A DNA stretch of 64,000 nt from Escherichia coli (GTDB lineage: Bacteria; Pseudomonadota; Gammaproteobacteria; Enterobacterales; Enterobacteriaceae), in NCBI RefSeq assembly GCF_016903815.1, contig NZ_CP069973.1, one strand, 5' to 3'. The notes beneath the pieces are model-generated. The model had not been told where the DNA came from. It made no database searches and was given only the letters and a program-made list of their open reading frames with translations. Of the stretch, positions 14,464 through 33,675 are shown in pieces (positions within the stretch are counted from its first letter, which is position 1; every line of letters starts with the position of its first letter). The position numbers and the translations under genes were made by a program.

Positions 14464-14474
14464 CGGTATCGACT

Positions 14475-14789: not shown

Positions 14790-14805
14790 CATGGAGTAAT
14801 TAACA

Positions 14806-16181: not shown

Positions 16182-16182
16182 T

Positions 16183-17457: not shown

Positions 17458-17528
17458 CATCCTCGCACTCGCGGGGATTTCTTTTATCTGAACTCGCTAC
17501 GGCGGGTTTTGTTTTATGGAGATGATAA

Positions 17529-17696: not shown

Positions 17697-17753
17697 TGGC
17701 GGTTTTTTATTGCCTGATTTGCAGGTTCGATTCCCTATTCGGAGATAGCACTC

Positions 17754-17954
17754 ATGCAACACGAACTACAGCCTGATTCACTGGTTGATTTGAAATTCAT
17801 CATGGCCGATACTGGCTTTGGTAAAACCTTCATCTATGACCGGATTAAGTCCGGCGACCTTCCTAAAGCCAAAGTTATCCACGGACGAGCAAGATGGTTA
17901 TATCGTGACCATTGTGAATTTAAAAATAAGCTCTTAAGCCGCGCCAATGGGTAA
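17754..17954 (+). CDS. torI: Excisionase / recombination directionality factor TorI (AlpA/MerR-type wHTH)
   Basis: 66 aa, MQHELQPDSLVDLKFIMADTGFGKTFIYDRIKSGDLPKAKVIHGRARWLYRDHCEFKNKLLSRANG, which I recall as KplE1 TorI. It lies at the prophage end next to the argW core, as in KplE1. Confidence 0.85.
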   Translation: MQHELQPDSLVDLKFIMADTGFGKTFIYDRIKSGDLPKAKVIHGRARWLYRDHCEFKNKLLSRANG

Positions 17955-18027
17955 AATAGCGGGTAAAATATTTCTCACATCTAAAAAACACCATTCCAAT
18001 CAATCCCCTGCCGCTTCAAGTAGATGT

Positions 18028-18043
18028 CTGCAGGGGACACCAT
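18028..18043 (+). repeat. att core: attR of the lambdoid prophage and attL of the adjacent island (argW 3' end)
   Basis: CTGCAGGGGACACCAT equals the last 15 nt of tRNA-Arg(CCU) argW plus T. The preceding sequence is not tRNA-like, so this is a partial copy. Confidence 0.85.
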
Positions 18044-18206
18044 CCCGCTGTACACCAACGTCTACCATTGTCTATAAATCCCATGTAAACATATAAAAAT
18101 AAAGAGATTTTATTCTCATGACGTCCATTTCCGTCTATTGAAATCAAGTAAATCTATGGGGCATAATTAGGGGCATTGCTGGTTCGATTGTATATGTGCC
18201 CCCAAC

Positions 18207-19493
18207 ATGTCCAGAAATACCCTCAACAAATTAACAGACCGTCAGTGCAAAGCAGCTAAGCCACGAGACAAAACTTATAAATTGTCTGATGGTGGTGGTC
18301 TTTATCTTGAAGTATCCCAGACCGGGTCGAAGTATTGGCGAATGAAGTATCGCCGCCCATCAGATAAGAAAGAAGACAGACTTGCTTTTGGTGTATATCC
18401 AACCATTAGCTTACAAGACGCCAGAGAAAAACGAGACAACGCCAAAAAGTTGTTAGTCAAGGGGATAGATCCCAAAGCAGAGCAAAGAGCAGCAAAAGCA
18501 GAAGAAAAAGGCGCATTCACTTTTGAGACAATAGGACGTCAATGGGTTGAAAGCCACCAGATGTGGAACGAAGACCACCGAAAACGCGTACTTAGAAGCC
18601 TTGAAATGTATATTTTCCCTCACATTGGCACTTCGGATATTCGCAAACTGGAGGCGATGACAATTTTACCTTTGTTTAAGAAGGTAGATGACGCCGGGAA
18701 ACACGATACAGCCAACCGACTTAAACAACGAGTTAAGGACATCATACATAGCGCCCGTCTGAGCGGCATTAAGACAGAAATCATCACGAATGATCTCGAT
18801 GTCCGGTTAATGCAATATGAAACTAAGCATCATGCCGCACTACATCCCAGAGATTTACCAGACTTTTTCACTCGATTGGGCAGCTTTAAAGGTAATCCTC
18901 TTACCCGCCTTGCCATTGAGCTAACCATGTTGACATTTGTTCGTTCAAGCGAGTTAAGGTTTGCCCGTTGGAAAGAGTTTGACCTTGATCGGGCTGAGTG
19001 GATTATCCCTAAAAAAAGAGAGCCTATCGATGGTGTGAGGTTTTCCACCCGTGGCACAAAAACGGGAAAAGACGAACATATCGTGCTTCTTAGCCGTCAG
19101 GCTGTTTCTATTGTAAAGCAGTTGAGAGAACTAAGCGGAAGCTACGATGTTGTGTTTCCGAATGAAAGAAACACCAAAGGCGTGATGAGTGAAAACACGG
19201 TAAACAAGGCATTACGCTTAATGGGCTATAACACGCAAGAGGACGTAACTGGACATGGATTCCGTGCCACAGCCTGTAGTTCCCTGATGGAGTCCGGTTT
19301 GTGGCAGGAGGACGCAGTAGAGCGCCAGATGAGCCACAAAGAATATAAAGACGTTAAAAGAGCCTACAAGCACAAGGCTGATTACTTAGAAGAGCGCAAA
19401 CTAATGCTTCAATGGTGGGCAGATTATCTGGACGCCAATCGAGAAATACATATAAGCCCTTACGAGTTCGGAAGGAGAACACGCCGTGACTAA
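18207..19493 (+). CDS. int: Tyrosine integrase, P4/IntS type (DUF4102 arm-binding N-domain)
   Basis: 428 aa. The N-terminus LTDRQCKAAKPRDKTYKLSDGGGLYLEV..GSKYWRMKYR, the catalytic region with HGFRATA, and the C-terminus YLEERKLMLQWWADYLD are all typical of P4-family integrases. Confidence 0.92.
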   Translation: MSRNTLNKLTDRQCKAAKPRDKTYKLSDGGGLYLEVSQTGSKYWRMKYRRPSDKKEDRLAFGVYPTISLQDAREKRDNAKKLLVKGIDPKAEQRAAKAEEKGAFTFETIGRQWVESHQMWNEDHRKRVLRSLEMYIFPHIGTSDIRKLEAMTILPLFKKVDDAGKHDTANRLKQRVKDIIHSARLSGIKTEIITNDLDVRLMQYETKHHAALHPRDLPDFFTRLGSFKGNPLTRLAIELTMLTFVRSSELRFARWKEFDLDRAEWIIPKKREPIDGVRFSTRGTKTGKDEHIVLLSRQAVSIVKQLRELSGSYDVVFPNERNTKGVMSENTVNKALRLMGYNTQEDVTGHGFRATACSSLMESGLWQEDAVERQMSHKEYKDVKRAYKHKADYLEERKLMLQWWADYLDANREIHISPYEFGRRTRRD

Positions 19494-20241
19494 GATGACA
19501 GGACTAGATGCGTTTTATAACGAGTCAGAAGATAAAATCTGGTTTGGTAATCTGATCAGCGAACTGGCAAGACTAAACAATGAAAATGAAAGAATGATCG
19601 CTGCCGCTATCTTAAGTAACTACAGATTGAGCAAAGCTAAACCAGATACTTTAGGGGGGCTGGGCTTTTATCAGTTCGATTGGGTATCAGGTTTTACAAC
19701 TAATGACGACTTTGAAAAGCAGTGTGTGGAGTTTTTAGGTCTTCTGGCTATGGGGCATGAATACAGGGAGAGCCCGATACCGGGGGAAGAAGGGACTTTC
19801 AACGTTAGGAAAGGGGAAGACTTTTTATATCACGATGATGAGGATGATTGGTATGGGTCTTACGATTCGTTTTATTTCAAGCGCTCCGAGGTTGTGAACT
19901 TCTTCCCAGAACTGGATATGAATGTTCCAGATAACGAACCAGAAATTGGAGCACTGTCAAAAAAAGTAGAAAGAGAACAAAACTGGAGAGGAAAAGATAC
20001 GGCTTTAAAGATGATCGCCGGAATGGCGATTGCCTTATTTGAATCAAGCAAAGATTTCCATAGTGGAGGAAACCTTAGTATCAATAGGGTTAGTGCCCAA
20101 GTAATAGAAAACAACATAATATTCGGGAACGATGAAGACAGCGATACCCACCCAGATACATTTCGGAGATTGCTAACGAACGCTTTGGATAAGTACGCCC
20201 CCAAATTTAAGAAAAAAGCAACCAAAAAGCGTCCAAAATAA
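19486..20241 (+). CDS. Hypothetical protein overlapping the int stop; Lys-rich C-terminal tail
   Basis: 251-aa ORF (GTG 19486 or ATG 19495) ending KFKKKATKKRPK. I recognise no family. Confidence 0.6.
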   Translation: MTKMTGLDAFYNESEDKIWFGNLISELARLNNENERMIAAAILSNYRLSKAKPDTLGGLGFYQFDWVSGFTTNDDFEKQCVEFLGLLAMGHEYRESPIPGEEGTFNVRKGEDFLYHDDEDDWYGSYDSFYFKRSEVVNFFPELDMNVPDNEPEIGALSKKVEREQNWRGKDTALKMIAGMAIALFESSKDFHSGGNLSINRVSAQVIENNIIFGNDEDSDTHPDTFRRLLTNALDKYAPKFKKKATKKRPK

Positions 20242-20397
20242 AGGAAGGATGTTCCCAAATTGTGCGTTAGAACTAAAAAATAACGCCCAATTTGGGGTAA
20301 TTCTATTCCCAAAAATTTTTTCTCCAAATTCACAGAAAACTTAAAAAAACAATGATTTACTATCTCACATAGTCAAGCAACGTATTACGAGGTAGAT

Positions 20398-20589
20398 ATG
20401 AAAAAGTCGCTGATTCGGCTATCTGAGGTTTTGAAACGCACTGGCTATAGCAAGGCGTGGGTATATGCTCTGATGAGCCGAGGACAATTCCCCCAATCAG
20501 TCAAGATTGGTGCTCGCGCAATAGCTTTTATTGAAAGCGAGATCGATGACTGGATCGATCAACGTATAGCCGAATCGCGTAGTAACTAA
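20398..20589 (+). CDS. AlpA-family transcriptional regulator / excisionase
   Basis: 63 aa. LIRLSEVLKRTGYSKAWVYALMSRGQFPQSVKIGARAIAFIESEIDDWI is the AlpA (HTH_17) pattern. Confidence 0.85.
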   Translation: MKKSLIRLSEVLKRTGYSKAWVYALMSRGQFPQSVKIGARAIAFIESEIDDWIDQRIAESRSN

Positions 20590-20637
20590 AGAACAGAAAC
20601 AAACAGGATACAAACAATACGTTATTAGGTATTAAGA

Positions 20638-20829
20638 ATGCAGTTGAAACCTACCAATCAAAAGCTGAACGTAACCCATGTTGATTTTGAAACCTTCGCG
20701 GCACTGATTAGATCAGAGCCACAAAAGGTGAGCACCAGCACCTGGGTTTATGATGTGAAATCCACCAGCGGTGGAAAAGCTATCGGCATTGCCTCTGGCG
20801 ATGATTACTTAGTAATAGATCTGATTTAA
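20638..20829 (+). CDS. Hypothetical protein
   Basis: 63-aa ORF on the same strand as the island's regulatory genes. Confidence 0.45.
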   Translation: MQLKPTNQKLNVTHVDFETFAALIRSEPQKVSTSTWVYDVKSTSGGKAIGIASGDDYLVIDLI

Positions 20830-20910
20830 TCGCACAAAAATTGTAGAGTAATTTGGGGAGACAGGAAGTCTCCTCCATATTACATTTTGGTACAACAGTA
20901 AGGGAATAAA

Positions 20911-21105
20911 ATGATTAATTACCTGACCGCTAAAGACGCAGCAGAATATCTTGGCGTCTGTCTGTCACGCTTCTATCAGTTAAAGCGATATATCCGAAGC
21001 TTTCCTCCCTATATAAATCAGACCATCAATGGACGCAAGCGCCGGGTGTGGCTTGCCTCCAGCCTTGATCAATTTGCCGACAGATTTCTGGGGGGACGAA
21101 AATGA
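20911..21105 (+). CDS. Small HTH DNA-binding protein (excisionase-family fold)
   Basis: 64 aa. LTAKDAAEYLGVCLSRFYQLKR is HTH-like. ATGA-coupled to the next ORF. Confidence 0.6.
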   Translation: MINYLTAKDAAEYLGVCLSRFYQLKRYIRSFPPYINQTINGRKRRVWLASSLDQFADRFLGGRK

Positions 21106-21488
21106 GCACTCTTACACGCTCTCAGGTCGCCGCGAATATACGCGATATCCTACTAAGTGGCAGGAAGCTTACCCCAAAAGAGTTTGACGACATATTAAGG
21201 AAAGCCGGAAATCACGAACGTAGTCGCGTTTTAACGCTGTTACGCAACGATTGGGGAATTCCTGTTGAGCAGTTTAAAACAGAGGCGTATCACGTCACAG
21301 AACGCAATTTAGAAGCATACCACAGCGATAAAGACGAAACATTGAAGATCTGGAGGACGAACGCCAGATATGTAAAGACATTGCGTAAGGTAAACATAAC
21401 GTTGTCGTTGTTGCGTGGGCTGGTGGGTAAAGTGCCTGAAGACACGCTTAGAACTGTTTACAAGGGTATTGAAACCAAATACCTGTGA
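21102..21488 (+). CDS. Hypothetical protein
   Basis: 128-aa ORF translationally coupled to the HTH gene and followed by the hairpin AAAGCCGACT...AGTCGGCTTT (21499-21527). Confidence 0.55.
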   Translation: MSTLTRSQVAANIRDILLSGRKLTPKEFDDILRKAGNHERSRVLTLLRNDWGIPVEQFKTEAYHVTERNLEAYHSDKDETLKIWRTNARYVKTLRKVNITLSLLRGLVGKVPEDTLRTVYKGIETKYL

Positions 21489-21556
21489 TTGACAAAGCAG
21501 AAAGCCGACTTTGCGAGAGTCGGCTTTGAAGCAATTGAAATATATGAACTTTACAC

Positions 21557-22609
21557 ATGGAATTATACGATAAAGACGCGAGTCTATCCACAAAATCACA
21601 AGCCGTAATCAATCACATCAATGGTCGCACATTAGCTTATGTGAGATCAGTTACGCACAAACGTAATGAATTAAAGGCGGAGAATAAACGCCAATCATCA
21701 AAGGCTAACCACTGCATACCACCAGCTTGGACAAAGAAGAAATGGCGTACAATGAGGCGAGCTTTGTTTACTCTGGATGTCGAATCAACTAGTGGTATCC
21801 CCTACTCCTTTACCTTCAGACCCGTTAAGGGAACAACGCCAGAGAAATTCAACAAAGCGTTAAAGGCACTTACCAGATGGTTGACTTCGAAAGGCAATCA
21901 GTGGGTTTACGTCATGGAGTGGGCTCAACACCAGTCAGAGCCGCATGTACACGCAATAATTATGGTGAACGAAAGAAGCATTAATGGGCAAGCAGGCAAA
22001 ATTGTCAGCAAATGGGTAACACTGGCAAACAATGCAATCCCATCAAATGTTCCTCCCCAGTGGGATCTAGATTTGAAAGGTCAGCAATATTCAGAGCCTA
22101 CAAGGTGTATAGGTAAACAGATTGATTACATGGCAAAACCCGAAACTAAGTTAAATGACTTTAATAGAGAGGCGAGCAAGAGCCTATATGATTGGTCAGA
22201 TGCCAACGTTTGGGGTTATTCGAATGGCTGGGCGCGGCATGAGATAAAAAAAGAAACACTTTCTATCACTGGCTTTCATGCTGTAAGACGCATACTAAAA
22301 GCCATTCAGGCATCAAGGAAAGACAACTACAAAGTTAAGCGACAGATACAGCGTACATTGAAACGACAAGACATAAATCGCTCACCAATCACCCCGTTCC
22401 AAGCACCGTTAATTAGCAAACACGATTGGGATTTATCAGTGATAGCGGTCACCAAAGAGGCAGAGACAGAGCGCAGGGAGTTACTATCCTCACAGACAAT
22501 AAACTCGAACAAAGTACAAACCCACCCGCTGTTAAGGATGTTAAGAAAAGCACGAGTGAGAGCATCCAGAGCCAGAAGAGAAAGCGGAGGTTATGACCAT
22601 TACTACTAG
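21557..22609 (+). CDS. Putative rolling-circle replication initiator, HUH endonuclease (inovirus Gp2-like)
   Basis: 350 aa with three ordered motifs: ALFTLDV (res 69-75), WVYVMEW...PHVHAIIMV (HUH, res 129-137) and IDYMAKP (Y-x-x-K, res 189-195). The C-terminus is basic. Confidence 0.65.
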   Translation: MELYDKDASLSTKSQAVINHINGRTLAYVRSVTHKRNELKAENKRQSSKANHCIPPAWTKKKWRTMRRALFTLDVESTSGIPYSFTFRPVKGTTPEKFNKALKALTRWLTSKGNQWVYVMEWAQHQSEPHVHAIIMVNERSINGQAGKIVSKWVTLANNAIPSNVPPQWDLDLKGQQYSEPTRCIGKQIDYMAKPETKLNDFNREASKSLYDWSDANVWGYSNGWARHEIKKETLSITGFHAVRRILKAIQASRKDNYKVKRQIQRTLKRQDINRSPITPFQAPLISKHDWDLSVIAVTKEAETERRELLSSQTINSNKVQTHPLLRMLRKARVRASRARRESGGYDHYY

Positions 22610-23252
22610 TAGTGACAGATCGTGACAAGGCAGAGCAAAAAACGACCAATATAAGAGAAATATCCCTGCCCAATCGCCAAAAGCGCGGAGCGCGGAGCGC
22701 GGCAAGCGCCGCGAGAGGCGCAAGAAGGCGAACCTATCCATTGAAACGGTCAGAAGAGCGCATCGCGCTCGATGACCGAAGTCCCCACTAACACCGTTAA
22801 CGAAAGATCAAAGTCTTAGAAAAAAATGACGTTTCTTTGAAGGGCTTCCATCCGTAAAAATCAAATTTTGAGATAAAGTACTTATAGAAATTAATCACTC
22901 TATAAGAGTGAGTTGACGTGAGTTTGAAGTGAGCAACATATTAAAAATATATATAATAATCAAACATATAATAACAACTACTGAGCAAAAATCACCAGAA
23001 AACAACGTCAACGTAACGTCACTCTGTAAGCACTTTTTCAGTCACTTTTTGGGTTGAATACACGTATAAATCCCCAACCATGAAATTTGAGCGCGTAAGC
23101 ACGACTCTGAAAGGCTTTTTATCTTTTAACCATTTAATATACCTGAGGTATTGAAGAAGATTCTGAGACATATACTAGAACTTTACCGTGCACGACTAAC
23201 AACATAAACGTTATATTTATATATAAATCAATGAGATAAATACATCCCCATC

Positions 23253-23284
23253 CAAAAAACAAGCATAACGCAAAATTGCGTTAT
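23253..23284 (-). terminator. Rho-independent terminator of the two-gene cargo operon
   Basis: The minus strand reads ATAACGCAA-TT-TTGCGTTAT followed by GCTTGTTTTTT, about 125 nt after the gene B stop. Confidence 0.7.
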
Positions 23285-23407
23285 CAACTTAAAAGGTACG
23301 ATTGAATCTGACAGTCTGCTCTGAGCGAAATGTGGGCACGTTCACCATAAGTCTCCAGATTGAAACGAAATGATAGTGTTAAATGTTCGATAGTTACTTT
23401 TCTAAGC

Positions 23408-24400
23408 TCAACGTTCGTAATAGTAATCCGACACCTCAGTAAAATCTATTTCCTCCCTAGAAAGTAATGATTCCATCTCATCTAGTTTATCGATTTGAGG
23501 CAAAACACTTGTTGGTGAAATCACAACATTAAAGTCCTCATTATATCGGTGACCTACCCTTGTGAGCTCTTTACCTAATTGCAACAATATATAATCACGT
23601 AAAATAAGTTGATTCCGTCTAAATCGAATAAGACGATAGTAATGGAAGAAATCAGAACATTTTGATGAATCATAATTTCTACCATTCCACCCGGTTTTCC
23701 TCGTAGCTCGGAATAATGCTTGCTCTTGCGTATTTTTCCAAATGCTAAAATCAAAGTGACTTTTCGGGTTAGGATTTTCGTATGTTGCTTGAGGATAAAA
23801 ATTAGTAACACCAAATTGATGCTTGTCAATGATCTTTAAAGTCCGATTTTGTTCAGACAACATCCGCCTTAAGGACCTAGGAATTTCGAAACGCATTAGT
23901 TTGTTTTTATCCAAGATTCTTAATTCTCTTGGAAGCATCTCATGATCCCGTTCTAAATATCTTTCACACCGTTTCGGCACATACTGAAAATACACTGAAA
24001 AAAAACAAAATATATTATCAGAAACGAGAGGAGTAATATGTATTTTTTCTTGCTCAGGAACGTTTTGAACAAAATAGTATGCCGTTCCTTGCCAAATCAA
24101 CGATTGCGCTACTGCCTCCACCAATTCACGTATTGTTTCATCTACCGAGTATTTCCTATATCTAGCTTGTAAATTTCCAAACATTTTACGTATGAGTTCT
24201 TCGTCGTTAGTTTCGACTTGAAACAAATTGGTATCACCGTGATTTACAAAATTAAAAACTCTAGCAAAATCCTCATAAAACATCCTTTGATAGAAACCTG
24301 GTCGTTCATTCTTAGACTTGGTCAATAGTCTATCAACAAAACTTAATTGCTCAGGATCGACGCTATAACCGTAAAGGGGTATATTCTTGATAATTTTCAT
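23408..24400 (-). CDS. Cargo gene B: 330-aa soluble protein of unknown function
   Basis: Long AT-rich ORF, ATGA-overlapped with gene A. No TM segment and no catalytic or DNA-binding motif that I can recognise. Confidence 0.85.
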   Translation of the reverse strand: MKIIKNIPLYGYSVDPEQLSFVDRLLTKSKNERPGFYQRMFYEDFARVFNFVNHGDTNLFQVETNDEELIRKMFGNLQARYRKYSVDETIRELVEAVAQSLIWQGTAYYFVQNVPEQEKIHITPLVSDNIFCFFSVYFQYVPKRCERYLERDHEMLPRELRILDKNKLMRFEIPRSLRRMLSEQNRTLKIIDKHQFGVTNFYPQATYENPNPKSHFDFSIWKNTQEQALFRATRKTGWNGRNYDSSKCSDFFHYYRLIRFRRNQLILRDYILLQLGKELTRVGHRYNEDFNVVISPTSVLPQIDKLDEMESLLSREEIDFTEVSDYYYER

Positions 24401-26862
24401 TCAAAATCCTTATCGTATTCCACGCCAAAACGACGAGCCAACTCACTAACATGGTAATCGATCTTGAAGTCAATTTGCTCGAGTTGCGGGAAAATTTCGA
24501 GAGCACAAAAGAGATGCGATGCATCTGAATGGGAGTTTAAGAACTCTCTGACAACTTTGTTCGTATGAGATTTCCCTCGATTCATTCCCATTTGATCGCT
24601 AAAGCCATCATGTCTTGCGCGGCGCTCAAATTCCATTTTCCAGTTAAGACGAATCATATCTCTCGGTGATGCGCACAAGCTGAAATTGCGCGGATTTGAA
24701 AGAATCATCATTCTCTTCAAATACTGCTGTTTGTTGGGAACAGACTCGAGCCAAGACTTAAACCTATCAAGTACTGTTTTAGATAGTTTTGCATTATCGA
24801 AATAAGCACTGTAAAGGATAGCAAAACCTAGAACTGACATCAGATCGTTGATCGCGGATGAAAGGAGATGCAGTCGAAACTCGTTGTTTATATCGAGTTT
24901 CGGATCTACAAATTTGGTATCTGATGCCAGCAATGAGAGAACCATGAACATAGGGAATACCTTGCTCAGTTTATTTTCATCATTCTGTTCAAGCGCATGT
25001 ATACATTCCTCAGCCAACTCAAAATATATCTGTCCAAAATGATCCGGTAGTTCATCATCTTGCTCTTGTTCAATGATATGTCCCACAATTTCCACCCTAC
25101 CAAGAATAGCTATAGCTTCATCCTGTGTAACGACAAACTGTTTGAGCATTTCAGCAATATTAATTTCTGGTAATGCGTATAGCTTTTCAGAGTAGTGCTC
25201 GTACTTTCTGTATCTCTCCAAGAGCAGAGAAAGTTCATTAAACCAATGGGGAAACTTCAAATGATTATGTAGGCTAGCGAGAACGACTTGCGTTGCGGCT
25301 TCCGGCATCTTCATGTTTATCAGTGAGTTAACGAAATCTGGAACCATGTTTACGTGAAAATCGCATACTTCTGGCAGAATTTTAGAATATTGTTGTAATA
25401 ACTTCTGAACCGCCAACTGCTGGACGTACTTTGGTTTGGATAATCTCTGTCCTTCAATCTCTTTTTCGAATTCGATACGTTCTACGATAAAGGCCAACTC
25501 AACCTGCAGAAAAGCAGGCAAAGTGTGTAGAGAGGTCTCTGTCCAGATATCATCTTTAAAGAACTGCTCCAATTCTTTCTCAAAAGTAATCATGCGGCGT
25601 AACATTTCAAGGCAAAGATTGCTGCCTAATGCAGCCCATGCATCCGCAATTCCAACTTTTATCACCTTTTCCTCAAAATAATTAACGACATCAGACGGTG
25701 TAAAGGCTTTTTCAATGATCGTCTTCATTTTCCGAAGTTCACGTATACCAATATCGAACTGAAACTGTTGTGCATAAGTTAATATACGAGATGAGAATAG
25801 ACTGATGAGATCCAACCCGAGCTTGAAATCACCGGCTTTGAATGCAAGTTCAATATGGCCTACCAACCTATTGATAATTTCATTCTCTAACCAAAGATAA
25901 TTTGGTTCTTCTTCAACCGTTAATTGGCTCCTTGTTTTTAAAGCAATGGATGTTACACTGTCGCCAGCTAAGAACCATTGCTTATGTTTTATTCGTCTAG
26001 GGAACCAGTAACTTTGATAATCAATTCTGTGTTTCTGATTAAGGTAATGAAGAAGTAATGCCGAATAAACATTACTGAGAGCAGGTAAATTATCTCCGAG
26101 TCCTACTTTTTCACATATCAGGCGATCATCAATGTAGTTTAACTGCTCAAAGGCCAAATGTGCGGCTTTAGAGTGATGATTAGCTAAAGATACTGAATTC
26201 TTGGGATTAGACGCACCTTCGATGTGTCGTGCAATTCGTGGGAGTATTTCACTTCGGGCTAACTGATTTAGGTCAAAAAAATTGAATAATCTTTGACCTA
26301 ATGGGAACAGAGCTAAGGAACTAACAAGTGTCAGCAATGTTCCCATTGCATAAACGAAAAGACCGGGTTCAACCCCGAACAAGTGGAGAGCAGTTGCACT
26401 AAGACAAAACACCGCAGAAAGCACTAAAGTCCGCGAATACACATTACCTACCTGCTCGGTAGTAAGCATTTGTATAATATCTCGCCGAAGTCTGGTATAT
26501 CCTGTACTTAGAATGATACCTATTGTAGCAAAGTATATTGAAAATATAGCGGTAAGTATCTGTGCGTACAACCTAAGTTGATCAATATTAAATTTTTTTT
26601 CATCATAGCTAAGAGGATGAAGCAAAATCGTATTATTCCGAATATAATCTTCAACAAAACCCAGTGCAAATAACGTTAATATGACCCATAACAAATTTTT
26701 TAAACCTACCAACGCAAAAGACATAAAAACATGAGCGTTAGACTTAGCTTTAAAAACAGACGTACGATGTATGTATGACGCACGTTCTAAAATAAATCTA
26801 ACCCTCACAAGATCTGTTCTTAATTTCCAGAACCACTTTTGAGAAATAAGCCAAACCTTCAT
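24397..26862 (-). CDS. Cargo gene A: 821-aa membrane protein (4 predicted TM + ~630-aa helical cytoplasmic domain) of unknown function
   Basis: 2.46-kb ORF (ATG 26862; the track uses TTG 26874). Hydrophobic segments at about res 50-75, 107-127, 150-169 and 173-194, with a basic loop TRLRRD between TM2 and TM3. I recognise no domain. Confidence 0.85.
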   Translation of the reverse strand: MKVWLISQKWFWKLRTDLVRVRFILERASYIHRTSVFKAKSNAHVFMSFALVGLKNLLWVILTLFALGFVEDYIRNNTILLHPLSYDEKKFNIDQLRLYAQILTAIFSIYFATIGIILSTGYTRLRRDIIQMLTTEQVGNVYSRTLVLSAVFCLSATALHLFGVEPGLFVYAMGTLLTLVSSLALFPLGQRLFNFFDLNQLARSEILPRIARHIEGASNPKNSVSLANHHSKAAHLAFEQLNYIDDRLICEKVGLGDNLPALSNVYSALLLHYLNQKHRIDYQSYWFPRRIKHKQWFLAGDSVTSIALKTRSQLTVEEEPNYLWLENEIINRLVGHIELAFKAGDFKLGLDLISLFSSRILTYAQQFQFDIGIRELRKMKTIIEKAFTPSDVVNYFEEKVIKVGIADAWAALGSNLCLEMLRRMITFEKELEQFFKDDIWTETSLHTLPAFLQVELAFIVERIEFEKEIEGQRLSKPKYVQQLAVQKLLQQYSKILPEVCDFHVNMVPDFVNSLINMKMPEAATQVVLASLHNHLKFPHWFNELSLLLERYRKYEHYSEKLYALPEINIAEMLKQFVVTQDEAIAILGRVEIVGHIIEQEQDDELPDHFGQIYFELAEECIHALEQNDENKLSKVFPMFMVLSLLASDTKFVDPKLDINNEFRLHLLSSAINDLMSVLGFAILYSAYFDNAKLSKTVLDRFKSWLESVPNKQQYLKRMMILSNPRNFSLCASPRDMIRLNWKMEFERRARHDGFSDQMGMNRGKSHTNKVVREFLNSHSDASHLFCALEIFPQLEQIDFKIDYHVSELARRFGVEYDKDFE

Positions 26863-26973
26863 TATATCAATCAAGTGATACCTGCCTTCTCATCTCTACA
26901 TGCAACATAAAAATGCTTACTATGGTGGCAAACAAAATCAAGAATCATATGTTTGAACACTTTTTACGCACGA

Positions 26974-27002
26974 ATTATCCGGTGTAAGATACTTATAGTC
27001 AA
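26974..27002 (-). promoter_or_regulatory. Candidate sigma70 promoter of the cargo operon
   Basis: The minus strand reads TTGACT-N17-GATAAT, about 110 nt upstream of the gene A ATG. Confidence 0.4.
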
Positions 27003-27050
27003 ATGGCAGGGCTAATCTCATCTGTATTGAGCTATTAACAGCCATATGTA

Positions 27051-27082
27051 AGACTAAGAAACGCGCCCAGCAAAGGCGCGTT
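27051..27082 (-). terminator. Terminator after the 58-aa ORF
   Basis: The minus strand reads AACGCGCC-TTTGCTG-GGCGCGTT followed by TCTTAGTCTT. Confidence 0.55.
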
Positions 27083-27087
27083 CTGCA

Positions 27088-27264
27088 TCAGGTAAGTTTG
27101 CTGGGGTCTACGGTTTCCATCCAATCTGGAGCAATTCCCAAACGTTCCGCTATCTCTTCGTTGGTCATGTCTTCAGTTGAGAAATTAGCCAGAGAATCGT
27201 TAACTTCAGGATAGTCAGGGGAGAGTAACAGGTATTCCCGCAACGCTTTCAGATCTTTTTCCAT
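27088..27264 (-). CDS. Small acidic ORF (58 aa), divergent from the recombinase gene
   Basis: GGAGCGTTAAA-ATG RBS. Translation MEKDLKALREYLLLSPDYPEVNDSLANFSTEDMTNEEIAERLGIAPDWMETVDPSKLT. Has its own terminator. Below the ORF-track cutoff. Confidence 0.55.
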   Translation of the reverse strand: MEKDLKALREYLLLSPDYPEVNDSLANFSTEDMTNEEIAERLGIAPDWMETVDPSKLT

Positions 27265-27435
27265 TTTAACGCTCCTTGTTTATTGACAGTCGAACGATGG
27301 TGAAGATTCTTGCCATCTCAAGTACAGGCAAGAAAATCCACCAGAACACCAAATTATCTCATAAGGTTAAATCGGTGTCGGGCTATTTCTTTCGGCTAGG
27401 TGAGTGTACCGCCTTAACCACCGGCAATTATCATT

Positions 27436-27560
27436 GTCTCAATTGGGTATACCGTAATGACAAGGTGATACAAAGTCTCAATAGGGTTGTATAGGAACAT
27501 TTTGACTACACAAAATGCATTATGTATCATTTGCACTTATATTCACAACCCTATTGAGAC
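27436..27560. promoter_or_regulatory. res-like recombinase binding region overlapping the recombinase promoter
   Basis: Three copies of (T/A)GTCTCAAT(T/A)GGGT: 27436-27448 (+), 27475-27490 (+) and 27545-27560 (-). The last two form a perfect 16-bp inverted repeat. TTGACT-N17-TATCAT (27502-27530) lies between them. The total span of ~125 bp is similar to Tn3-type res. Confidence 0.55.
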
Positions 27561-27566
27561 AATGCA

Positions 27567-28193
27567 ATGAACGTTAGAATTTACTGCCGAGCATCAACTG
27601 AGGGGCAACACGCTGATCGAGCACTTACCAGCCTACGTGAATTTTCAAAATCAAAAGGCTGGCAGATTGCAGGAGAGTATATAGAAAATGCTAGCGGGGC
27701 GAAGCTTGAGCGCGTAGAGCTTATGCGGCTATTGTCTGAAGCCCAGTCCGGCGATCTGTTGCTAGTGGAAGCTATAGATCGTCTGAGTCGCCTAGAACAT
27801 AGCGCATGGGTCGAACTGAAAGATACGCTCAACCGAAAAGGGTTAATCATCGTATCAATGGATTTACCAACGAGCTGGCAGATGGTCGAGATGGCAGGCA
27901 ATGACCTAACCAGCGGCATCCTGAGAGCCGTAAATGCCATGTTGATTGATATCCTTGCCACAATGGCACGGCAGGATTACGAAACACGTCGTAAACGCCA
28001 ACAGCAAGGCATTGAGCGAGCTAAAAGCGAAGGAATATACATTGGCAGGGAGAAAAATCAGGAAGCCCGAGAGATCGTTAGAGAGATGTTGGAGCAAGGA
28101 GTAAAACCTGAACTCATCATGAAGGCAGCAGGAATCAGCCGAGCGACTTACTACCGTATAAAAAGTGAGCTGTCAGTCGTAAAATCAGAATAA
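27567..28193 (+). CDS. Small serine recombinase (resolvase/invertase family, C-terminal HTH)
   Basis: 208 aa. VRIYCRASTEGQ (catalytic Ser), LLVEAIDRLSR, and the C-terminal HTH AAGISRATYYRIK. Confidence 0.9.
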   Translation: MNVRIYCRASTEGQHADRALTSLREFSKSKGWQIAGEYIENASGAKLERVELMRLLSEAQSGDLLLVEAIDRLSRLEHSAWVELKDTLNRKGLIIVSMDLPTSWQMVEMAGNDLTSGILRAVNAMLIDILATMARQDYETRRKRQQQGIERAKSEGIYIGREKNQEAREIVREMLEQGVKPELIMKAAGISRATYYRIKSELSVVKSE

Positions 28194-28327
28194 CCTTTGA
28201 AAGGTCGTCAGGCTTGTTTCATCTGCTAAAAGCCAGCATTTCTGACCATAATACCTGGGGGCACCTACTGGGGCACCCACCAAAATCGAAAGACAAATAA
28301 GTTATAATTCAATCTGTTAGTTTACTT

Positions 28328-28350
28328 TTCGATTCCTGCAGGGGACACCA
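28328..28350 (+). repeat. Right-end att: 23-nt copy of the argW 3' end (pawZ-like tRNA-Arg pseudogene fragment)
   Basis: TTCGATTCCTGCAGGGGACACCA equals the T-loop through CCA of argW as recalled. There is no upstream tRNA body. Confidence 0.85.
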
Positions 28351-28790
28351 GATACCCTTCAAACCAAATCTACCTTCACCCCGTAAAAGATGGGTTTGGC
28401 GCACACTAGCCCTATATCTACTCATTTTTACTGCAACAGGTTGAAATCTCAGCACTGTCAGAAAGCGCTGATGACTAAACAGCCCTGGGCCGGGCGATGT
28501 AACCATCATACAGAATCCTGATAGCGAAATATGGCGTGACTCGATACTTCACTCTGCAATGCATTCCTTGATGAATTCGCAGGCCCGTGATACTCGGGAC
28601 AGGTCGCTGAATGACGACAATGTCCTGGAAATCAGCGAACCGCGTATCCGGAGTACATTTGAGCGACTGTACCAGAACATGAATGAGGCGTTTGGATTAG
28701 GTGATTATTAGTTGGGCTAAGCATTTTTGTATTATTATTTTCCGGTTGAGGGATATGGAGATATCGACAACAACCGGAAAAAGTTTACGT

Positions 28791-30038
28791 CTATATTGCT
28801 GAAGGTACAGGCGTTTCCATAACTATTTGCTCGCGTTTTTTACTCAGGAAGAAAATGCCAAATAGCAACATCAGGCAGACAATACCCGAAATTGCGAAGA
28901 AAACTGTCTGGTAGCCTGCGTGGTCAAAGAGTATCCCAGTCGGCGTTGAAAGCAGCACAATCCCAAGCGAACTGGCAATTTGAAAACCAATCAGAAAGAT
29001 CGTCGACGACAGGCGCTTATCAAAGTTTGCCACGCTGTATTTGAAGACGGATATGACACAAAGTGGAACCTCAATGGCATGTAACAGCTTCACTAATGAA
29101 ATAATCCAGGGGTTAACGAACAACGCGCAGGAAAGGATACGCAACGCCATAATCACAACACCGATAAGTAATGCATTTTTTGGCCCTACCCGATTCACAA
29201 AGAAAGGAATAATCGCCATGCACAGCGCTTCGAGTACCACCTGGAATGAGTTGAGATAACCATACAGGCGCGTTCCTACATCGTGTGATTCGAATAAACC
29301 TGCATAAAAGACAGGAAAGAGTTGTTGATCAAAAATGTTATAGAAAGACCACGTCCCCACAATAAATATGACGAAAACCCAGAAGTTTCGATCCTTGAAA
29401 ACTGCGATAAAATCCTCTTTTTTTACCCCTCCCGCATCCGCCGCTATGCACTGGTGATCCTTATCTTTAAAACGCATGTTGATCATCATAAATACAGCGC
29501 CAAATAGCGAGACCAACCAGAAGTTGATATGGGGACTGATACTAAAAAATATACCGGCAAAGAACGCGCCAATAGCATAGCCAAAAGATCCCCAGGCGCG
29601 CGCTGTTCCATATTCGAAATGAAAATTTCGCGCCATTTTTTCGGTGAAGCTGTCAAGCAAACCGCATCCCGCCAGATACCCCAGGCCAAAAAAGAGCGCC
29701 CCCAGAATTAGACCTACAGAAAAATTGCTTTGCAGTAACGGTTCATAAACGTAAATCATAAACGGTCCGGTCAAGACCAGAATGAAACTCATACACCAGA
29801 TGAGCGGTTTCTTCAGACCGAGTTTATCCTGAACGATGCCGTAGAACATCATAAATAGAATGCTGGTAAACTGGTTGACCGAATAAAGTGTACCTAATTC
29901 CGTCCCTGTTAATCCTAGATGTCCTTTCAGCCAAATAGCGTATAACGACCACCACAGCGACCAGGAAATAAAAAAGAGAAATGAGTAACTGGATGCAAAA
30001 CGATAGTACGCATTTCTGAATGGAATATTCAGTGCCAT
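28791..30038 (-). CDS. cscB: Sucrose:H+ symporter CscB (MFS, LacY-like)
   Basis: 415 aa, MALNIPFRNAYYRFASSYSFLFFISWSLWWSLYAIWLKG... recognised as CscB. Confidence 0.95.
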   Translation of the reverse strand: MALNIPFRNAYYRFASSYSFLFFISWSLWWSLYAIWLKGHLGLTGTELGTLYSVNQFTSILFMMFYGIVQDKLGLKKPLIWCMSFILVLTGPFMIYVYEPLLQSNFSVGLILGALFFGLGYLAGCGLLDSFTEKMARNFHFEYGTARAWGSFGYAIGAFFAGIFFSISPHINFWLVSLFGAVFMMINMRFKDKDHQCIAADAGGVKKEDFIAVFKDRNFWVFVIFIVGTWSFYNIFDQQLFPVFYAGLFESHDVGTRLYGYLNSFQVVLEALCMAIIPFFVNRVGPKNALLIGVVIMALRILSCALFVNPWIISLVKLLHAIEVPLCVISVFKYSVANFDKRLSSTIFLIGFQIASSLGIVLLSTPTGILFDHAGYQTVFFAISGIVCLMLLFGIFFLSKKREQIVMETPVPSAI

Positions 30039-30099
30039 AATTACCTGCCTGTCGTTAAAAAATTCATGTCCTATTTAGAGATAAGAGCGGCCTCGCCGT

Positions 30100-31023
30100 T
30101 TACTTCTCACCTTCCAGTTCTTGTCGACATGGCAGCGCTGTCATTGCCCCTTTCGCTGTTACTGCAAGCGCTCCGCAACGTTGAGCGAGATTGATAATTC
30201 GTCGCATTTCTCTCTCATCTGTAGATAATCCCGTAGAGGACAGACCTGTGAGTAACCCGGCAACGAACGCATCTCCCGCCCCAGTGCTATCGACACAATT
30301 CACAGACATTCCAGCAAAATGGTGAACTTGTCCTCGATAACAGACCACCACCCCTTCTGCACCTTTAGTCACCAACAGCATGGCGATCTCATACTCTTTT
30401 GCCAGCGCGCATATATCCCGATCGTTCTGTGTTTTTCCACTGATAAGTCGCCATTCTTCTTCCGAGAGCTTGACGACATCCGCCAGTTGTAGCGCCTGCC
30501 GCAAACACAAGCGGAACAAATGCTCGTCTTGCCATAGATCTTCACGAATATTGGGATCGAAGCTGACAAAACCTCCGGCATGCCGGATCGCCGTCATCGC
30601 AGTAAATGCGCTGGTACGCGAAGGCTCGGCAGACAACGCAATTGAACAGAGATGTAACCATTCGCCATGTCGCCAGCAGGGCAAGTCTGTCGTCTCTAAA
30701 AAAAGATCGGCACTGGGGCGGACCATAAACGTAAATGAACGTTCTCCTTGATCGTTCAGATCGACAAGCACCGTGGATGTCCGGTGCCATTCATCTTGCT
30801 TCAGATACGTGATATCGACACCCTCAGTTAGCAGCGTTCTTTGCATTAACGCACCAAAAGGATCATCACCGACCCGACCTATAAACCCACTTGTTCCGCC
30901 TAATCTGGCGATTCCCACCGCAACGTTAGCTGGCGCGCCGCCAGGACAAGGCAGTAGCCGCCCGTCTGATTCTGGCAAGAGATCTACGACCGCATCCCCT
31001 AAAACCCATACTTTGGCTGACAT
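30100..31023 (-). CDS. cscK: Fructokinase CscK (PfkB family)
   Basis: 307 aa. MSAKVWVLGDAVVDLLPE..., GGAPANVA and DSTGAGDAF motifs. Confidence 0.95.
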   Translation of the reverse strand: MSAKVWVLGDAVVDLLPESDGRLLPCPGGAPANVAVGIARLGGTSGFIGRVGDDPFGALMQRTLLTEGVDITYLKQDEWHRTSTVLVDLNDQGERSFTFMVRPSADLFLETTDLPCWRHGEWLHLCSIALSAEPSRTSAFTAMTAIRHAGGFVSFDPNIREDLWQDEHLFRLCLRQALQLADVVKLSEEEWRLISGKTQNDRDICALAKEYEIAMLLVTKGAEGVVVCYRGQVHHFAGMSVNCVDSTGAGDAFVAGLLTGLSSTGLSTDEREMRRIINLAQRCGALAVTAKGAMTALPCRQELEGEK

Positions 31024-31127
31024 TTTTTTCCCTTAAATTCATCTGACTTACGCATAGTGATAAACCTCTTTTTCGCAAAATCGTCATGGATTTACTAAAA
31101 CATGCATATTCGATCACAAAACGTCAT

Positions 31128-31205
31128 AGTTAACGTTAACATTTGTGATATTCATCGCATTTATGAAAGTAATGGACTTTATTTTTATAAAAGTTAACGT
31201 TAACA
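31128..31205. promoter_or_regulatory. Two identical palindromic operators (candidate CscR sites) in the cscKB/cscA divergent promoter region
   Basis: AGTTAACGTTAACA occurs at 31128-31141 and 31192-31205. The core GTTAACGTTAAC is a perfect 12-bp palindrome, as expected for a LacI-family operator. Confidence 0.6.
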
Positions 31206-31238
31206 ATTCACCAAATTTGCTTAACCAGGATGATAAAA

Positions 31239-32672
31239 ATGACGCAATCTCGATTACATGCGGCGCAAAACGCACTAGCAAAACTTCACGAGCGCCGAGG
31301 TAACACTTTCTATCCCCATTTTCACCTCGCGCCTCCTGCCGGGTGGATGAACGATCCAAACGGCCTGATCTGGTTTAACGATCGTTATCACGCGTTTTAT
31401 CAACATCACCCGATGAGCGAACACTGGGGGCCAATGCACTGGGGACATGCCACCAGCGACGATATGATCCACTGGCAGCATAAGCCTATTGCGCTAGCGC
31501 CAGGAGACGAGAATGACAAAGACGGGTGTTTTTCAGGTAGTGCTGTCGATGACAATGGTGTCCTCTCACTTATCTACACCGGACACGTCTGGCTCGATGG
31601 TGCAGGTAATGACGATGCAATTCGCGAAGTACAATGTCTGGCTACCAGTCGGGATGGTATTCATTTCGAGAAACAGGGTGTGATCCTCACTCCACCAGAA
31701 GGAATCATGCACTTCCGCGATCCTAAAGTGTGGCGTGAAGCCGACACATGGTGGATGGTTGTCGGGGCGAAAGATCCAGGCAACACGGGGCAGATCCTGC
31801 TTTATCGCGGCAGTTCATTGCGTGAATGGACCTTCGATCGCGTACTGGCCCACGCTGATGCGGGTGAAAGCTATATGTGGGAATGTCCGGACTTTTTCAG
31901 CCTTGGCGATCAGCATTATCTGATGTTTTCCCCGCAGGGAATGAATGCCGAGGGATACAGTTACCGAAATCGCTTTCAAAGTGGCGTAATACCCGGAATG
32001 TGGTCGCCAGGACGACTTTTTGCACAATCCGGGCATTTTACTGAACTTGATAACGGGCATGACTTTTATGCACCACAAAGCTTTTTAGCGAAGGATGGTC
32101 GGCGTATTGTTATCGGCTGGATGGATATGTGGGAATCGCCAATGCCCTCAAAACGTGAAGGCTGGGCAGGCTGCATGACGCTGGCGCGCGAGCTATCAGA
32201 GAGCAATGGCAAACTTCTACAACGCCCGGTACACGAAGCTGAGTCGTTACGCCAGCAGCATCAATCTATCTCTCCCCGCACAATCAGCAATAAATATGTT
32301 TTGCAGGAAAACGCGCAAGCAGTTGAGATTCAGTTGCAGTGGGCGCTGAAGAACAGTGATGCCGAACATTACGGATTACAGCTCGGCACTGGAATGCGGC
32401 TGTATATTGATAACCAATCTGAGCGACTTGTTTTGTGGCGGTATTACCCACACGAGAATTTAGATGGCTACCGTAGTATTCCCCTCCCGCAGGGTGACAT
32501 GCTCGCCCTAAGGATATTTATCGATACATCATCCGTGGAAGTATTTATTAACGACGGGGAGGCGGTGATGAGTAGCCGAATATATCCGCAGCCAGAAGAA
32601 CGGGAACTGTCGCTCTATGCCTCCCACGGAGTGGCTGTGCTGCAACATGGAGCACTCTGGCAACTGGGTTAA
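31239..32672 (+). CDS. cscA: Sucrose-6-phosphate hydrolase / invertase CscA (GH32)
   Basis: 477 aa from MTQSRLHAAQNALAKLHERRGN, with AGGA 8 nt upstream. Has WMNDPNG, FRDP and ECP GH32 motifs. Confidence 0.95.
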   Translation: MTQSRLHAAQNALAKLHERRGNTFYPHFHLAPPAGWMNDPNGLIWFNDRYHAFYQHHPMSEHWGPMHWGHATSDDMIHWQHKPIALAPGDENDKDGCFSGSAVDDNGVLSLIYTGHVWLDGAGNDDAIREVQCLATSRDGIHFEKQGVILTPPEGIMHFRDPKVWREADTWWMVVGAKDPGNTGQILLYRGSSLREWTFDRVLAHADAGESYMWECPDFFSLGDQHYLMFSPQGMNAEGYSYRNRFQSGVIPGMWSPGRLFAQSGHFTELDNGHDFYAPQSFLAKDGRRIVIGWMDMWESPMPSKREGWAGCMTLARELSESNGKLLQRPVHEAESLRQQHQSISPRTISNKYVLQENAQAVEIQLQWALKNSDAEHYGLQLGTGMRLYIDNQSERLVLWRYYPHENLDGYRSIPLPQGDMLALRIFIDTSSVEVFINDGEAVMSSRIYPQPEERELSLYASHGVAVLQHGALWQLG

Positions 32673-32679
32673 CATAATA

Positions 32680-33675
32680 TCAGGTGGAACAACGGATCAA
32701 CAGCGGGCAAGGGATCCGCGTCACTCTTCCCCCTTCACGATCTTCAATAATATGCAATGCAGCTTCCCGCCCGATAATGTCATGTGGAAGCTGAATTGTG
32801 GTCAGCGGCGGTAAAAACAGATGCCCGACGCCAACCAGATTATCAAAGCCCATTACGGCGACATCCTGCGGGATACGTACCCCCTTCGCCAGGAGAACCT
32901 GATAAGCGACAAAGGCTGCGCGATCGTTACCACATATCAGAACATCAAAATCTGGTTTGCCAGATTTGAAGTGGGCATTGAGTAAACTTGCGAGATCGGT
33001 GTAGTGATCATCACCTGTTGCCATGTGAAATTGTTTCACCTCAGCCAGATCTCGTCCAGCATCACGCCAGGCCTGCTCAAATCCCTGCCGACGATACCCT
33101 GTTGCCAACGCACTTTCCGGTAGCCAGAAGCATAACGGTTGACGATAGCCCGCCGCGAGCAAATGCTGTGTTGATTCATATTGTGCAGTGTAATCATCAG
33201 GGATATAACTGGGTAACGCTGGGTCATCCGCCACACAGTTCGCCAATACAATATTTTCACCATACAGAGACTCAGGCAGCGTGATATGTCGCAGCCCCAT
33301 TGTAGTATAGATAATGCCATCCGGACGGTGGGCAAGCAGCTGACGAGCAGCACGGGCAGCGTCATCTTCAGAAAAAATATTGATTAAAAAACTATTCCAG
33401 CCGAACTCGCTGGCGGTTTGCTCAATGGCAAGCAGAATATCAACAGAGAAAGGAGTGGTAGCAGTGTCCTGCGCCAGCACGGCGAGAGTCGACGGCTTAC
33501 GTCCTTGAGCGCGCATCTTACGGGCGGAAAGATCAGGAACATAATTCAGGGTCTGGATTGCCTGCAATACGCGGTCACGCGTTGCAGGACGCACAGATTC
33601 TGCATTATGCATCACCCGGGAGACTGTCATCATCGACACTCCCGCCAGGCGTGCGACATCCTTTAATGAAGCCAT
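32680..33675 (-). CDS. cscR: LacI-family repressor CscR
   Basis: 331 aa from the internal Met, MASLKDVARLAGVSMMTVSRVMHN... The 397-aa track ORF has a non-homologous N-terminal extension. Confidence 0.92.
   Translation of the reverse strand: MASLKDVARLAGVSMMTVSRVMHNAESVRPATRDRVLQAIQTLNYVPDLSARKMRAQGRKPSTLAVLAQDTATTPFSVDILLAIEQTASEFGWNSFLINIFSEDDAARAARQLLAHRPDGIIYTTMGLRHITLPESLYGENIVLANCVADDPALPSYIPDDYTAQYESTQHLLAAGYRQPLCFWLPESALATGYRRQGFEQAWRDAGRDLAEVKQFHMATGDDHYTDLASLLNAHFKSGKPDFDVLICGNDRAAFVAYQVLLAKGVRIPQDVAVMGFDNLVGVGHLFLPPLTTIQLPHDIIGREAALHIIEDREGGRVTRIPCPLLIRCST

Follow-up and report, generated by a model that had tools for sequence, protein, structure and literature searches.

A putative resolvase and tripartite res site in an argW-integrated island of Escherichia coli

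Site-specific resolution systems of the kind considered here are well known, and the autoregulated tripartite res is a textbook mechanism. By analogy, the best functional precedent for the locus described below is the Res/res pair of SGI1; a 2025 study showed that this Res and its tripartite res rid the island of multimers or tandem arrays (PMC12217951). RP4 ParA offers a further precedent by analogy, and in the IncP-1 module the resolvase gene has the resolution site for its regulatory region (PMC6312765). For IncP-9 plasmids a 'par and res' region has been described as maintenance functions (PMC2885752), and beyond that statement we found no functional dissection of the IncP-9 res in the literature searched. 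In alphaproteobacterial islands at the Mg-chelatase gene, a large serine recombinase had earlier been found paired with a small one, which was suggested to be a resolvase (PMC11551731).

Here we analysed a small serine recombinase gene and the repeats ahead of it in a 64-kb stretch of E. coli DNA, the whole of which is called the window below. The locus was previously uncharacterised. A preliminary description of the same DNA had read it as a resolution module, and this reading is supported by our sequence comparisons once the subsites are parsed differently. These data indicate that the module is probably the resolvase and res of an island at argW, serving multimer or tandem-array resolution with autoregulation.

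The recombinase and its island

The gene at 27567–28193 (plus strand) encodes a resolvase-type small serine recombinase of 208 aa, which RefSeq lists as a recombinase family protein. Pfam Resolvase (PF00239) matched residues 5–156 with 83.4 bits against a cut-off of 23.3 (E 2.2e-23). HTH_7 scored 18.1 bits, which is under its cut-off of 23.8, and alignments to Sin and gamma-delta extend through the DNA-binding domain to residue 201. When the single sequence was compared with proteins of solved structure, Sin (Tn552 bin3) was the best match over the full length (1.5e-15), with gamma-delta and Tn3 resolvase next. A family profile built from 24 homologues scored Sin (100 bits, 1e-27), gamma-delta (67 bits, 2e-17) and Tn3 (63 bits, 2e-16) above Gin invertase (39.7 bits, 3e-9), and the match to Gin was confined to its N-terminal part. 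This ranking agrees with the kinship to resolvases rather than invertases that had been proposed for the protein. No equivalog threshold was passed in NCBIfam, where the Mpi invertase model reached 37.9 bits against a cut-off of 272.

Residues Y6, R8, S10, D71, R72 and R75 are invariant in the 24 homologues, which span 47–97% identity. Comparison with the copies in O157:H7, E. albertii and Citrobacter gave pN/pS values of 0.10–0.12, and no copy contains a stop codon. The recombinase is intact and, judged by these values, under purifying selection. Because the catalytic residues are invariant, pN/pS is about 0.1 and the profile scores rank as they do, the enzyme looks active and nearer to resolvases than to invertases.

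The setting is an E. coli chromosome in which a 10.3-kb island (18043–28350) is integrated at argW (tRNA-Arg), in tandem behind a lambdoid prophage. The attR is a copy of the 3' end of argW at 28328–28350 (plus strand), and within it the 15-nt direct repeat CTGCAGGGGACACCA occupies 28336–28350. A direct-repeat search placed the attL-side copy of CTGCAGGGGACACCA at the left island end, at 18028–18042 (plus strand). In sampled genomes that lack the module, annotated tRNA-Arg matches the window sequence 28328–28360. Because of these direct repeats and the match to tRNA-Arg, the recombinase is assigned to the right end of the island.

The plus strand of the island encodes a tyrosine integrase (18207–19493; Pfam Arm-DNA-bind_3, Phage_int_M and Phage_integrase), an AlpA-family regulator or excisionase-like protein (20398–20589; Pfam Phage_AlpA, 3.6e-18) and a rolling-circle-type Rep (21557–22609; Pfam REP_ORF2-G2P, 7.6e-7). 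RefSeq names the last of these a rolling circle replication-associated protein and gives it a shorter CDS, 21752–22609. An HTH_17 protein is additionally encoded. The host element had been expected to pass through a circular, replicating form, and the presence of the tyrosine integrase, AlpA and rolling-circle Rep is in keeping with this. No transposase was found in the island, the neighbours of the module being integrase, AlpA, Rep and cargo.

Variable cargo lies between Rep and res on the minus strand (23408–27264), with ORFs of 330, 825 and 58 aa. The 330-aa and 825-aa ORFs matched no family in Pfam, NCBIfam, PADLOC or PHROG, and in the same searches the 58-aa ORF gave merely a sub-threshold match to Sigma70_r4_2 and a PHROG of unknown function. 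A defence-system identity for these ORFs was considered and rejected, as PADLOC, Pfam, NCBIfam and PHROGs returned no informative match. In E. albertii and O157:H7 the segment 23408–27264 is swapped for other genes.

We found the module (27265–28360) in 546 of 5426 complete E. coli genomes, in every case on the chromosome. Members of the resolvase clade occur widely on islands and plasmids of proteobacteria, and about 10% of complete E. coli genomes, O157:H7 among them, have one. In O157:H7 EDL933 the module is kept at 93.6% identity, the island integrase and Rep are missing and the cargo is different. An intact res and recombinase in a setting that has lost the mobility genes may reflect either recent decay or a further role of the module. 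In E. albertii and Citrobacter, homology to the module runs from 27416/27430 to 28350/28355.

Architecture of the res-like site

Three copies of a repeat had been reported ahead of the gene, and all are present at the positions claimed: GTCTCAATTGGGT at 27436–27448, GTCTCAATAGGGT at 27475–27487 and the reverse complement of GTCTCAATAGGGT at 27548–27560. The final copy stops 6 nt short of the recombinase ATG (27567), as had been noted. Also present are the perfect 16-nt inverted repeat (27475–27490/27545–27560), the palindrome CATTTTG-N6-CAAAATG (27498–27517) and the TTGACT-N17-TATCAT motif (27502–27530) of the preliminary description. A 17-nt inverted repeat, 94% complementary, joins copy 1 and copy 3 (27432–27448/27548–27564). 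Searching the 64-kb window for GTCTCAATWGGGT with at most 1 mismatch gave 4 matches against 0.07 expected, and no count as high as 4 arose in 100 shuffles. One of the matches, the fourth, is an isolated half-site within an ORF (20078–20090). Alignment of enterobacterial upstream regions showed that the perfect 16-nt repeat is clade-specific and is not kept as such in relatives. The CATTTTG-N6-CAAAATG palindrome was rejected as a functional element, as it is not conserved beyond the window's own clade.

The repeats belong to a res-like site of 125 bp (27436–27560, plus strand) that is made up of three dyads in the order I-II-III, with site III adjoining the recombinase start codon. Site I, the presumed crossover site, is 28 bp long (27436–27463, plus strand) and reads GTCTCAATTGGGT-AT-ACCGTAATGACAA, with its half-sites 2 bp apart. 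Its axis falls between A27449 and T27450, at the centre of the GGTA/TACC palindrome GGTATACC. A dyad had been described here and is indeed present, but family conservation puts the axis 1 bp to the right of the TGTC...GACA axis first given. Site II is 34 bp long (27475–27508, plus strand) with half-sites 8 bp apart, and its left half is GTCTCAATAGGGT with 13/13 matches. The right half of site II (27496–27508) is degenerate in the window, where it matches at 7/13 by a count made by hand on the sequence, and reaches 9–11/13 in relatives. Site III is 37 bp long (27524–27560, plus strand) with half-sites 11 bp apart. Its left half is GTATCATTTGCAC here, with 8/13 matches, and GTATCATTTGGGT in relatives, and its right half is ACCCTATTGAGAC (13/13), 6 nt from the ATG.

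The strong copies are thus the left half-sites of sites I and II and the right half-site of site III (I-L, II-L and III-R). Their weak partners in the window's clade are I-R with 9/13 matches together with II-R and III-L, that is, 3 of the 6 half-sites. Both II-R and III-L are clear in relatives, for example as GTCTCAATAGGGTTAAATTCAACCCTATTGAC and GTATCATTTGGGT-N11-ACCTTTAAGAGAC. The three strong copies of the earlier parse stand, but the arrangement of an inverted-repeat pair plus a dyad does not, and the copies are instead the strong half-sites of three separate dyads. Centre-to-centre distances are 42 bp between sites I and II and 50.5 bp between sites II and III, and the gaps between the dyads are 11 and 15 bp.

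We also conducted an unbiased scan of the upstream regions of 16 enterobacterial loci for 13-mers with at least 9/13 matches to GTCTCAATAGGGT. Half-site-like 13-mers occurred only at offsets -14(+), +1(-), +25(+), +46(-), +74(+) and +98(-) from the site I centre, an orientation that alternates + - + - + -. The scan returned 66 matches in total against 4.0 expected. When the 16 regions were aligned, the half-site blocks were conserved and the spacers variable. The six fixed positions in relatives bear out the proposal of a res of about 125 bp with three subsites. An Rfam search of the leader gave sub-threshold chance matches only and no known RNA element.

The palindrome GGTATACC has a single occurrence in the 64-kb window. 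Because the window has only one site I, the enzyme would be without a substrate while one copy of the island is integrated. In some relatives the gene stands at the edge of an inserted segment beside core genes (locus L083), as might be seen if the small serine recombinase were the integrase or excisionase of a sub-element and site I its att site. However, the island already has a tyrosine integrase and tRNA-derived att repeats, no second site I exists within the 64 kb, and a three-dyad accessory layout is typical of resolution sites and not of att sites. We consider an integrase role of this kind highly improbable.

To place the site in its family, we fetched 80 loci with homologues of 44–98% identity from alpha-, beta- and gamma-proteobacteria, plus further contexts. 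The core GGGTATACC is exact in 13 of the 14 close relatives that keep a res, and the remaining one has AGGTATACC. A GGGTATACC-like core with 0–2 mismatches lies approximately 95–127 nt 5' of the ATG in most of the 80 loci, and near 153 nt from the ATG in three loci, pWW0 included. A text search of papers for the core sequence GGGTATACC gave nothing relevant. Elsewhere, homologues adjoin tyrosine integrases or large serine recombinases in small islands, and in the contexts L092–L095 a large and a small serine recombinase are paired.

The outer block of the half-sites covaries with the C-terminal helix-turn-helix motif of the recombinase. GTCTC/GTATC pairs with SRAT(F/Y)YRI(K) proteins, GGTTC pairs with (C)SRSTL(SRLAK) proteins at about 4 copies per upstream region, and GTATC pairs with ST(S/T)T(V) proteins. 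As a control, coding sequence contained no more than 0.7 copies of the motifs in question per 150 nt. Covariation of the half-site block with the helix-turn-helix motif argues well, if indirectly, for recognition of these sites by the recombinase itself. Another explanation, that they are operators for the divergent 58-aa protein, was considered and rejected, as the gene for this protein is not beside the module in E. albertii and Citrobacter and the sites covary with the recombinase.

The res had been said to overlap the promoter of its own gene, and this holds for the promoter that we predict. A putative sigma-70 promoter at 27502–27530 (plus strand), with TTGACT at 27502–27507, N17 and TATCAT at 27525–27530, scores 10/12 in a consensus scan and is conserved in the aligned relatives. 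The TTGA of the -35 box and the GTAT of the -10 region TGTATCAT are invariant in the 16 aligned relatives, a signal that cannot be separated from the conservation of the half-sites. The outer part of II-R is formed by the -35 box (TTGAC) and that of III-L by the -10 box (TGTATCAT), each of them nearly invariant. Site II would thus lie on the -35 box, and site III on the -10 box and the transcript start. Because of this overlap, binding of the recombinase should repress its own promoter.

The position of the -35 and -10 boxes under sites II and III could also mean that the repeats are operators only, the protein now being mainly an autoregulator or local regulator and recombination having ceased at this locus. 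The degenerate half-sites of the window's clade would fit this, as would the survival of the module in O157:H7 in the absence of the island mobility genes. However, the catalytic Ser and Arg are invariant, the entire catalytic domain is under purifying selection, and site I is the best-conserved core of the array even though it is upstream of the promoter. We regard a purely regulatory function as very unlikely.

The predicted promoter is in addition bracketed by the perfect inverted repeat, as would be expected of an invertible promoter switch in which the 16-nt repeats (27475–27490/27545–27560) flank a 54-bp cassette flipped by the recombinase. The preliminary description had already held a switch to be less likely, and the comparisons agree. 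The repeat is perfect in the window's clade alone and its arms are half-sites of two different dyads, 54 bp would make a very short spacer for a serine invertase, the enzyme is closer to resolvases than to Gin, and the 64 kb contain a single site I (GGTATACC). The 54-bp spacer was found in inverted form in none of about 546 E. coli genomes. In the query with the inverted spacer, the best full-length match was 92.4%, the value expected for the normal orientation, and the lone record at 99% or above must be a short partial match because it ranked below the full-length matches. With no inverted genome, a clade-specific repeat and one site I in 64 kb, we rejected the invertible switch, which seems hardly credible. 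Membership of the DNA invertases (Hin/Gin/Cin/Pin) was rejected as well, on the single GGTATACC site in 64 kb, the lack of an inverted variant and relatives that are not invertases.

Proposed resolution and homology breaks at site I

Under the preferred reading, that of a resolvase acting at its res, dimers of the recombinase would bind the three dyads of 13-bp half-sites (2, 8 and 11 bp apart). The substrate would be two directly repeated copies of res on one molecule, either in a multimeric form of the excised island circle or in a tandem island array. The two copies would synapse via the accessory sites II and III, and strand exchange at the central AT of site I (27449/27450) would then yield monomers.

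The sequence around site I may also bear a trace of recombination. Several groups of close relatives share 85–100% identity to the right of the site I centre and have unrelated flanks past the left half-site. In most groups compared, members differ in the left half-site and have identical or nearly identical right halves. The left halves GTCTCTTTAGGGTA, GTATCGATTGGGTA, ATCTCTTTTAGGTA and ATATCAATAGGGTA occur in one group, each joined to TACCTGATAAAGAC. The plasmid copy pDSMZ13645 belongs to the TACCTGATAAAGAC group. In O157:H7 the jump in divergence coincides with the left boundary of site I, and the change of cargo comes farther out, past the 58-aa gene. The genes found to the left of site I across loci include EcoRII restriction-modification with AAA_13, SMEK_N with DUF2326, TIR with HNH, and unknown large proteins.

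These breaks suggest, not conclusively, past crossovers at site I that joined the module to different res-bearing partners. Low-frequency intermolecular recombination has been documented for Tn3, pKLH2 and SGI1 Res (PMC12217951). Site I could then be a recurrent exchange point, and not only a resolution site, at which rare resolvase-mediated crossovers between the res copies of different islands and plasmids swap defence-like cargo blocks; we put this forward as a tentative and rather doubtful idea. If true, small integrative islands would have an integron-like acquisition of cargo, with a constant end formed by res and recombinase.

A stronger form would make cargo exchange between islands, via rare intermolecular crossovers at site I, the main role of the module and multimer resolution a secondary one, with the site serving to dock defence-like cargo. 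Many independent pairs lose homology at site I with left half-sites that differ and right halves that are identical, variable DNA, often of a defence-like kind, directly adjoins site I on its left, and the documented intermolecular events of Tn3, pKLH2 and SGI1 Res (PMC12217951) supply a route. However, resolvases with accessory sites strongly prefer intramolecular, directly repeated sites, and a resolution system could generate the breakpoints as an evolutionary by-product. Breakpoint by-products of this sort have long been known in Tn21-type transposons. In O157:H7, moreover, the cargo differs farther left and not at site I, and the comparison covered a few dozen loci only. Exchange as the main role seems improbable to us, and multimer or tandem-array resolution is the reading that we carry forward.

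The map of the res site, with six half-sites, a predicted crossover dinucleotide and the overlap with the promoter, is precise and testable. The homology breaks at site I may help to explain the reshuffling of variable, defence-like island cargo, and whether site I acts as a recurrent point of cargo exchange is the most interesting point that the locus raises. The recombinase and its 125-bp site could also be a further orthogonal excision-only tool, comparable to ParA-MRS and CinH-RS2.

Comparison with known resolution systems

Among proteins of solved structure, the best match to the family is Sin, which acts at resH (Staphylococcus, Tn552 bin3), with 1e-27 in an alignment that spans the full length, DNA-binding domain included. 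The Sin res has two subsites, the second of which is a direct repeat, and a gap of about 30 bp that is bound by HU/IHF/Hbsu; its site I may be centred on GGGTATACCC. The half-site grammar is alike in the two systems: 4 bp separate an outer block of 5 bp from an inner GGGT, as in TATGATTAGGGTGT upstream of a Sin-like gene. This grammar is all that the one Sin-like locus fetched shares with the window. By contrast with Sin, the window has six alternating half-sites in three dyads with gaps of 11 and 15 bp. A two-subsite res of the Sin/beta type was rejected for the window, as the alternating orientation of the half-sites and the 11/15-bp gaps do not fit it.

The layout is closer to that of Tn3/gamma-delta, for which the reference geometry is 28/34/25 bp with the centres of sites I and II about 5 helical turns apart (in part from PMC12217951). 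Both have three unequally spaced dyads in the order I-II-III towards the gene, a site I of 28 bp, a site II of 34 bp, a central AT and a promoter inside res, which in the window is a predicted one. The two differ in site III, which is 25 bp in Tn3/gamma-delta and 37 bp in the window, and in the distance between the centres of sites I and II, which is approximately 51–53 bp in the former and 42 bp in the latter. In addition, the window's island has no Tn3-family (DDE) transposase or terminal repeats of about 38 bp, and protein similarity to Tn3/gamma-delta is lower than to Sin.

RK2/RP4 ParA resembles the proposed module in being a small serine recombinase for plasmid multimer resolution that acts at an MRS site of about 106 bp (PMC5698047). 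The sequences are distant, and a gene annotated parA (RK2/RP4-type resolvase) encodes a product with 35% identity to the window protein.

The closest named relative is the backbone 'res' of the IncP-9 plasmid pWW0 (NC_003350, 638–1273), with 47.8% identity over 98% of the protein. It has a GGGTATACC-centred dyad upstream, in a region that contains GTCACAAATGGGTATACCTGAAATGGTAC. It differs in being carried by a conjugative plasmid and not an integrated island, in the outer half-site block, which is GTCAC/GATAC, and in the position of site I, 153 nt from the ATG. On protein homology and a GGGTATACC-centred site I, the window module belongs to the IncP-9-type clade of plasmid and island resolvases.

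SGI1 is alike in having its resolvase gene behind a tripartite res in an integrative, replicating island, with box III adjoining the start codon, box I distal and the promoter within res (PMC12217951). The proteins differ in affinity, SGI1 Res grouping with the resolvases of Tn3, Tn5044 and ISXc5 and the window enzyme being Sin/IncP-9-like. The boxes of SGI1 are 28, 30 and 25 bp with centres of I and II 51 bp apart and a central AC (PMC12217951), whereas the sites in the window are 28, 34 and 37 bp with centres 42 and about 50 bp apart and a central AT within GGTATACC. Judged from these comparisons, the module combines a Sin-like protein affinity with a Tn3-like layout of three dyads, in a geometry of its own.

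The argW neighbourhood and its cargo genes

The island at argW does not stand alone in this region. In the annotation of the window, it is preceded in tandem by a prophage of lambdoid or P22-like type (about 1-18042) with torI at its end. On the 3' side of attR (28351-33000) there is a fragment of a DUF4942 gene and then the csc sucrose genes, which stand in place of dsdC and part of dsdX. Because a prophage and the island lie in tandem and are followed by this gene fragment and the csc genes, the argW locus is a multi-element mosaic.

Within the island, the predicted res site is adjoined by a two-gene cargo unit on the minus strand (23408-26874) that encodes proteins of 825 and 330 aa. Neither protein had a match in Pfam, NCBIfam, PADLOC or PHROG, and a few sources label the 825-aa protein DUF2254. 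We also observed that the N-terminal part of the 825-aa protein is hydrophobic. Homologues of this protein with 63-74% identity occur in very distant Proteobacteria, with hosts including Pectobacterium, Yersinia, Vibrio, Nitrosomonas, Alteromonas and Rhodobacterales. Since sequences this similar reach such distant hosts, the comparison points to recent horizontal transfer of the gene. Transfer of this kind is typical of defence genes.

Retention and loss of the res-recombinase module

An ORF of 58 aa (27088-27264, minus strand), divergent from the recombinase gene, matches PHROG 35119, which is of unknown function, at 4.5e-30. It is kept with the res-recombinase module in O157:H7 and Kluyvera and is not in E. 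albertii or Citrobacter. In O157:H7 EDL933 (L099, locus 10224-13094) the 58-aa gene, res and an intact recombinase gene are retained next to csc, together with a different cargo gene of 470 aa and without the island integrase, AlpA and Rep. This remnant, with its intact resolvase gene, is apparently immobile.

Two other genomes carry altered forms of the region. In Kluyvera genomosp. 3 (L016, locus about 5839-6711), the counterpart of 27215-27579 in the window is absent, with a few bases in its place. The absent segment comprises the beginning of the 58-aa gene, the complete res with the promoter, and the first recombinase codons. The remainder of the recombinase gene is still 88% identical, so a natural deletion or a pseudogene is the probable reading of this gap. 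In one genome, E. coli AR_0137 (NZ_CP021879.1), IS903B is inserted somewhere in the equivalent of 27000-28400.

Half-sites and accessory-site layout

A fourth copy of the 13-mer half-site, GTATCAATAGGGT, with 1 mismatch, lies away from res at 20078-20090, inside a 251-aa ORF 3' of the island integrase. It stands alone, with no dyad partner visible, and is a variant used in some relatives. This copy may be due to chance (about 0.07 expected) or may be a relic.

At the recombinase start codon there is a two-codon mini-ORF, ATG CAA TGA (27562-27570), which overlaps that codon (ATGA overlap) and is conserved only in the window's own clade.

For the alpha- and beta-proteobacterial homologues (L020-L080), we inspected the layout at about 100 nt on the 5' side of each gene. 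In the GGTTC/GAACC clade, where the half-sites carry GGTTC as their outer block, the gene-proximal repeat copies resemble direct repeats (...CGAACC-N9-AACGAACC) more than they do a pair in inverted orientation. Because these copies look directly repeated, the layout of the accessory sites may differ between clades, with that of the GGTTC/GAACC clade perhaps nearer to the layout of Sin.
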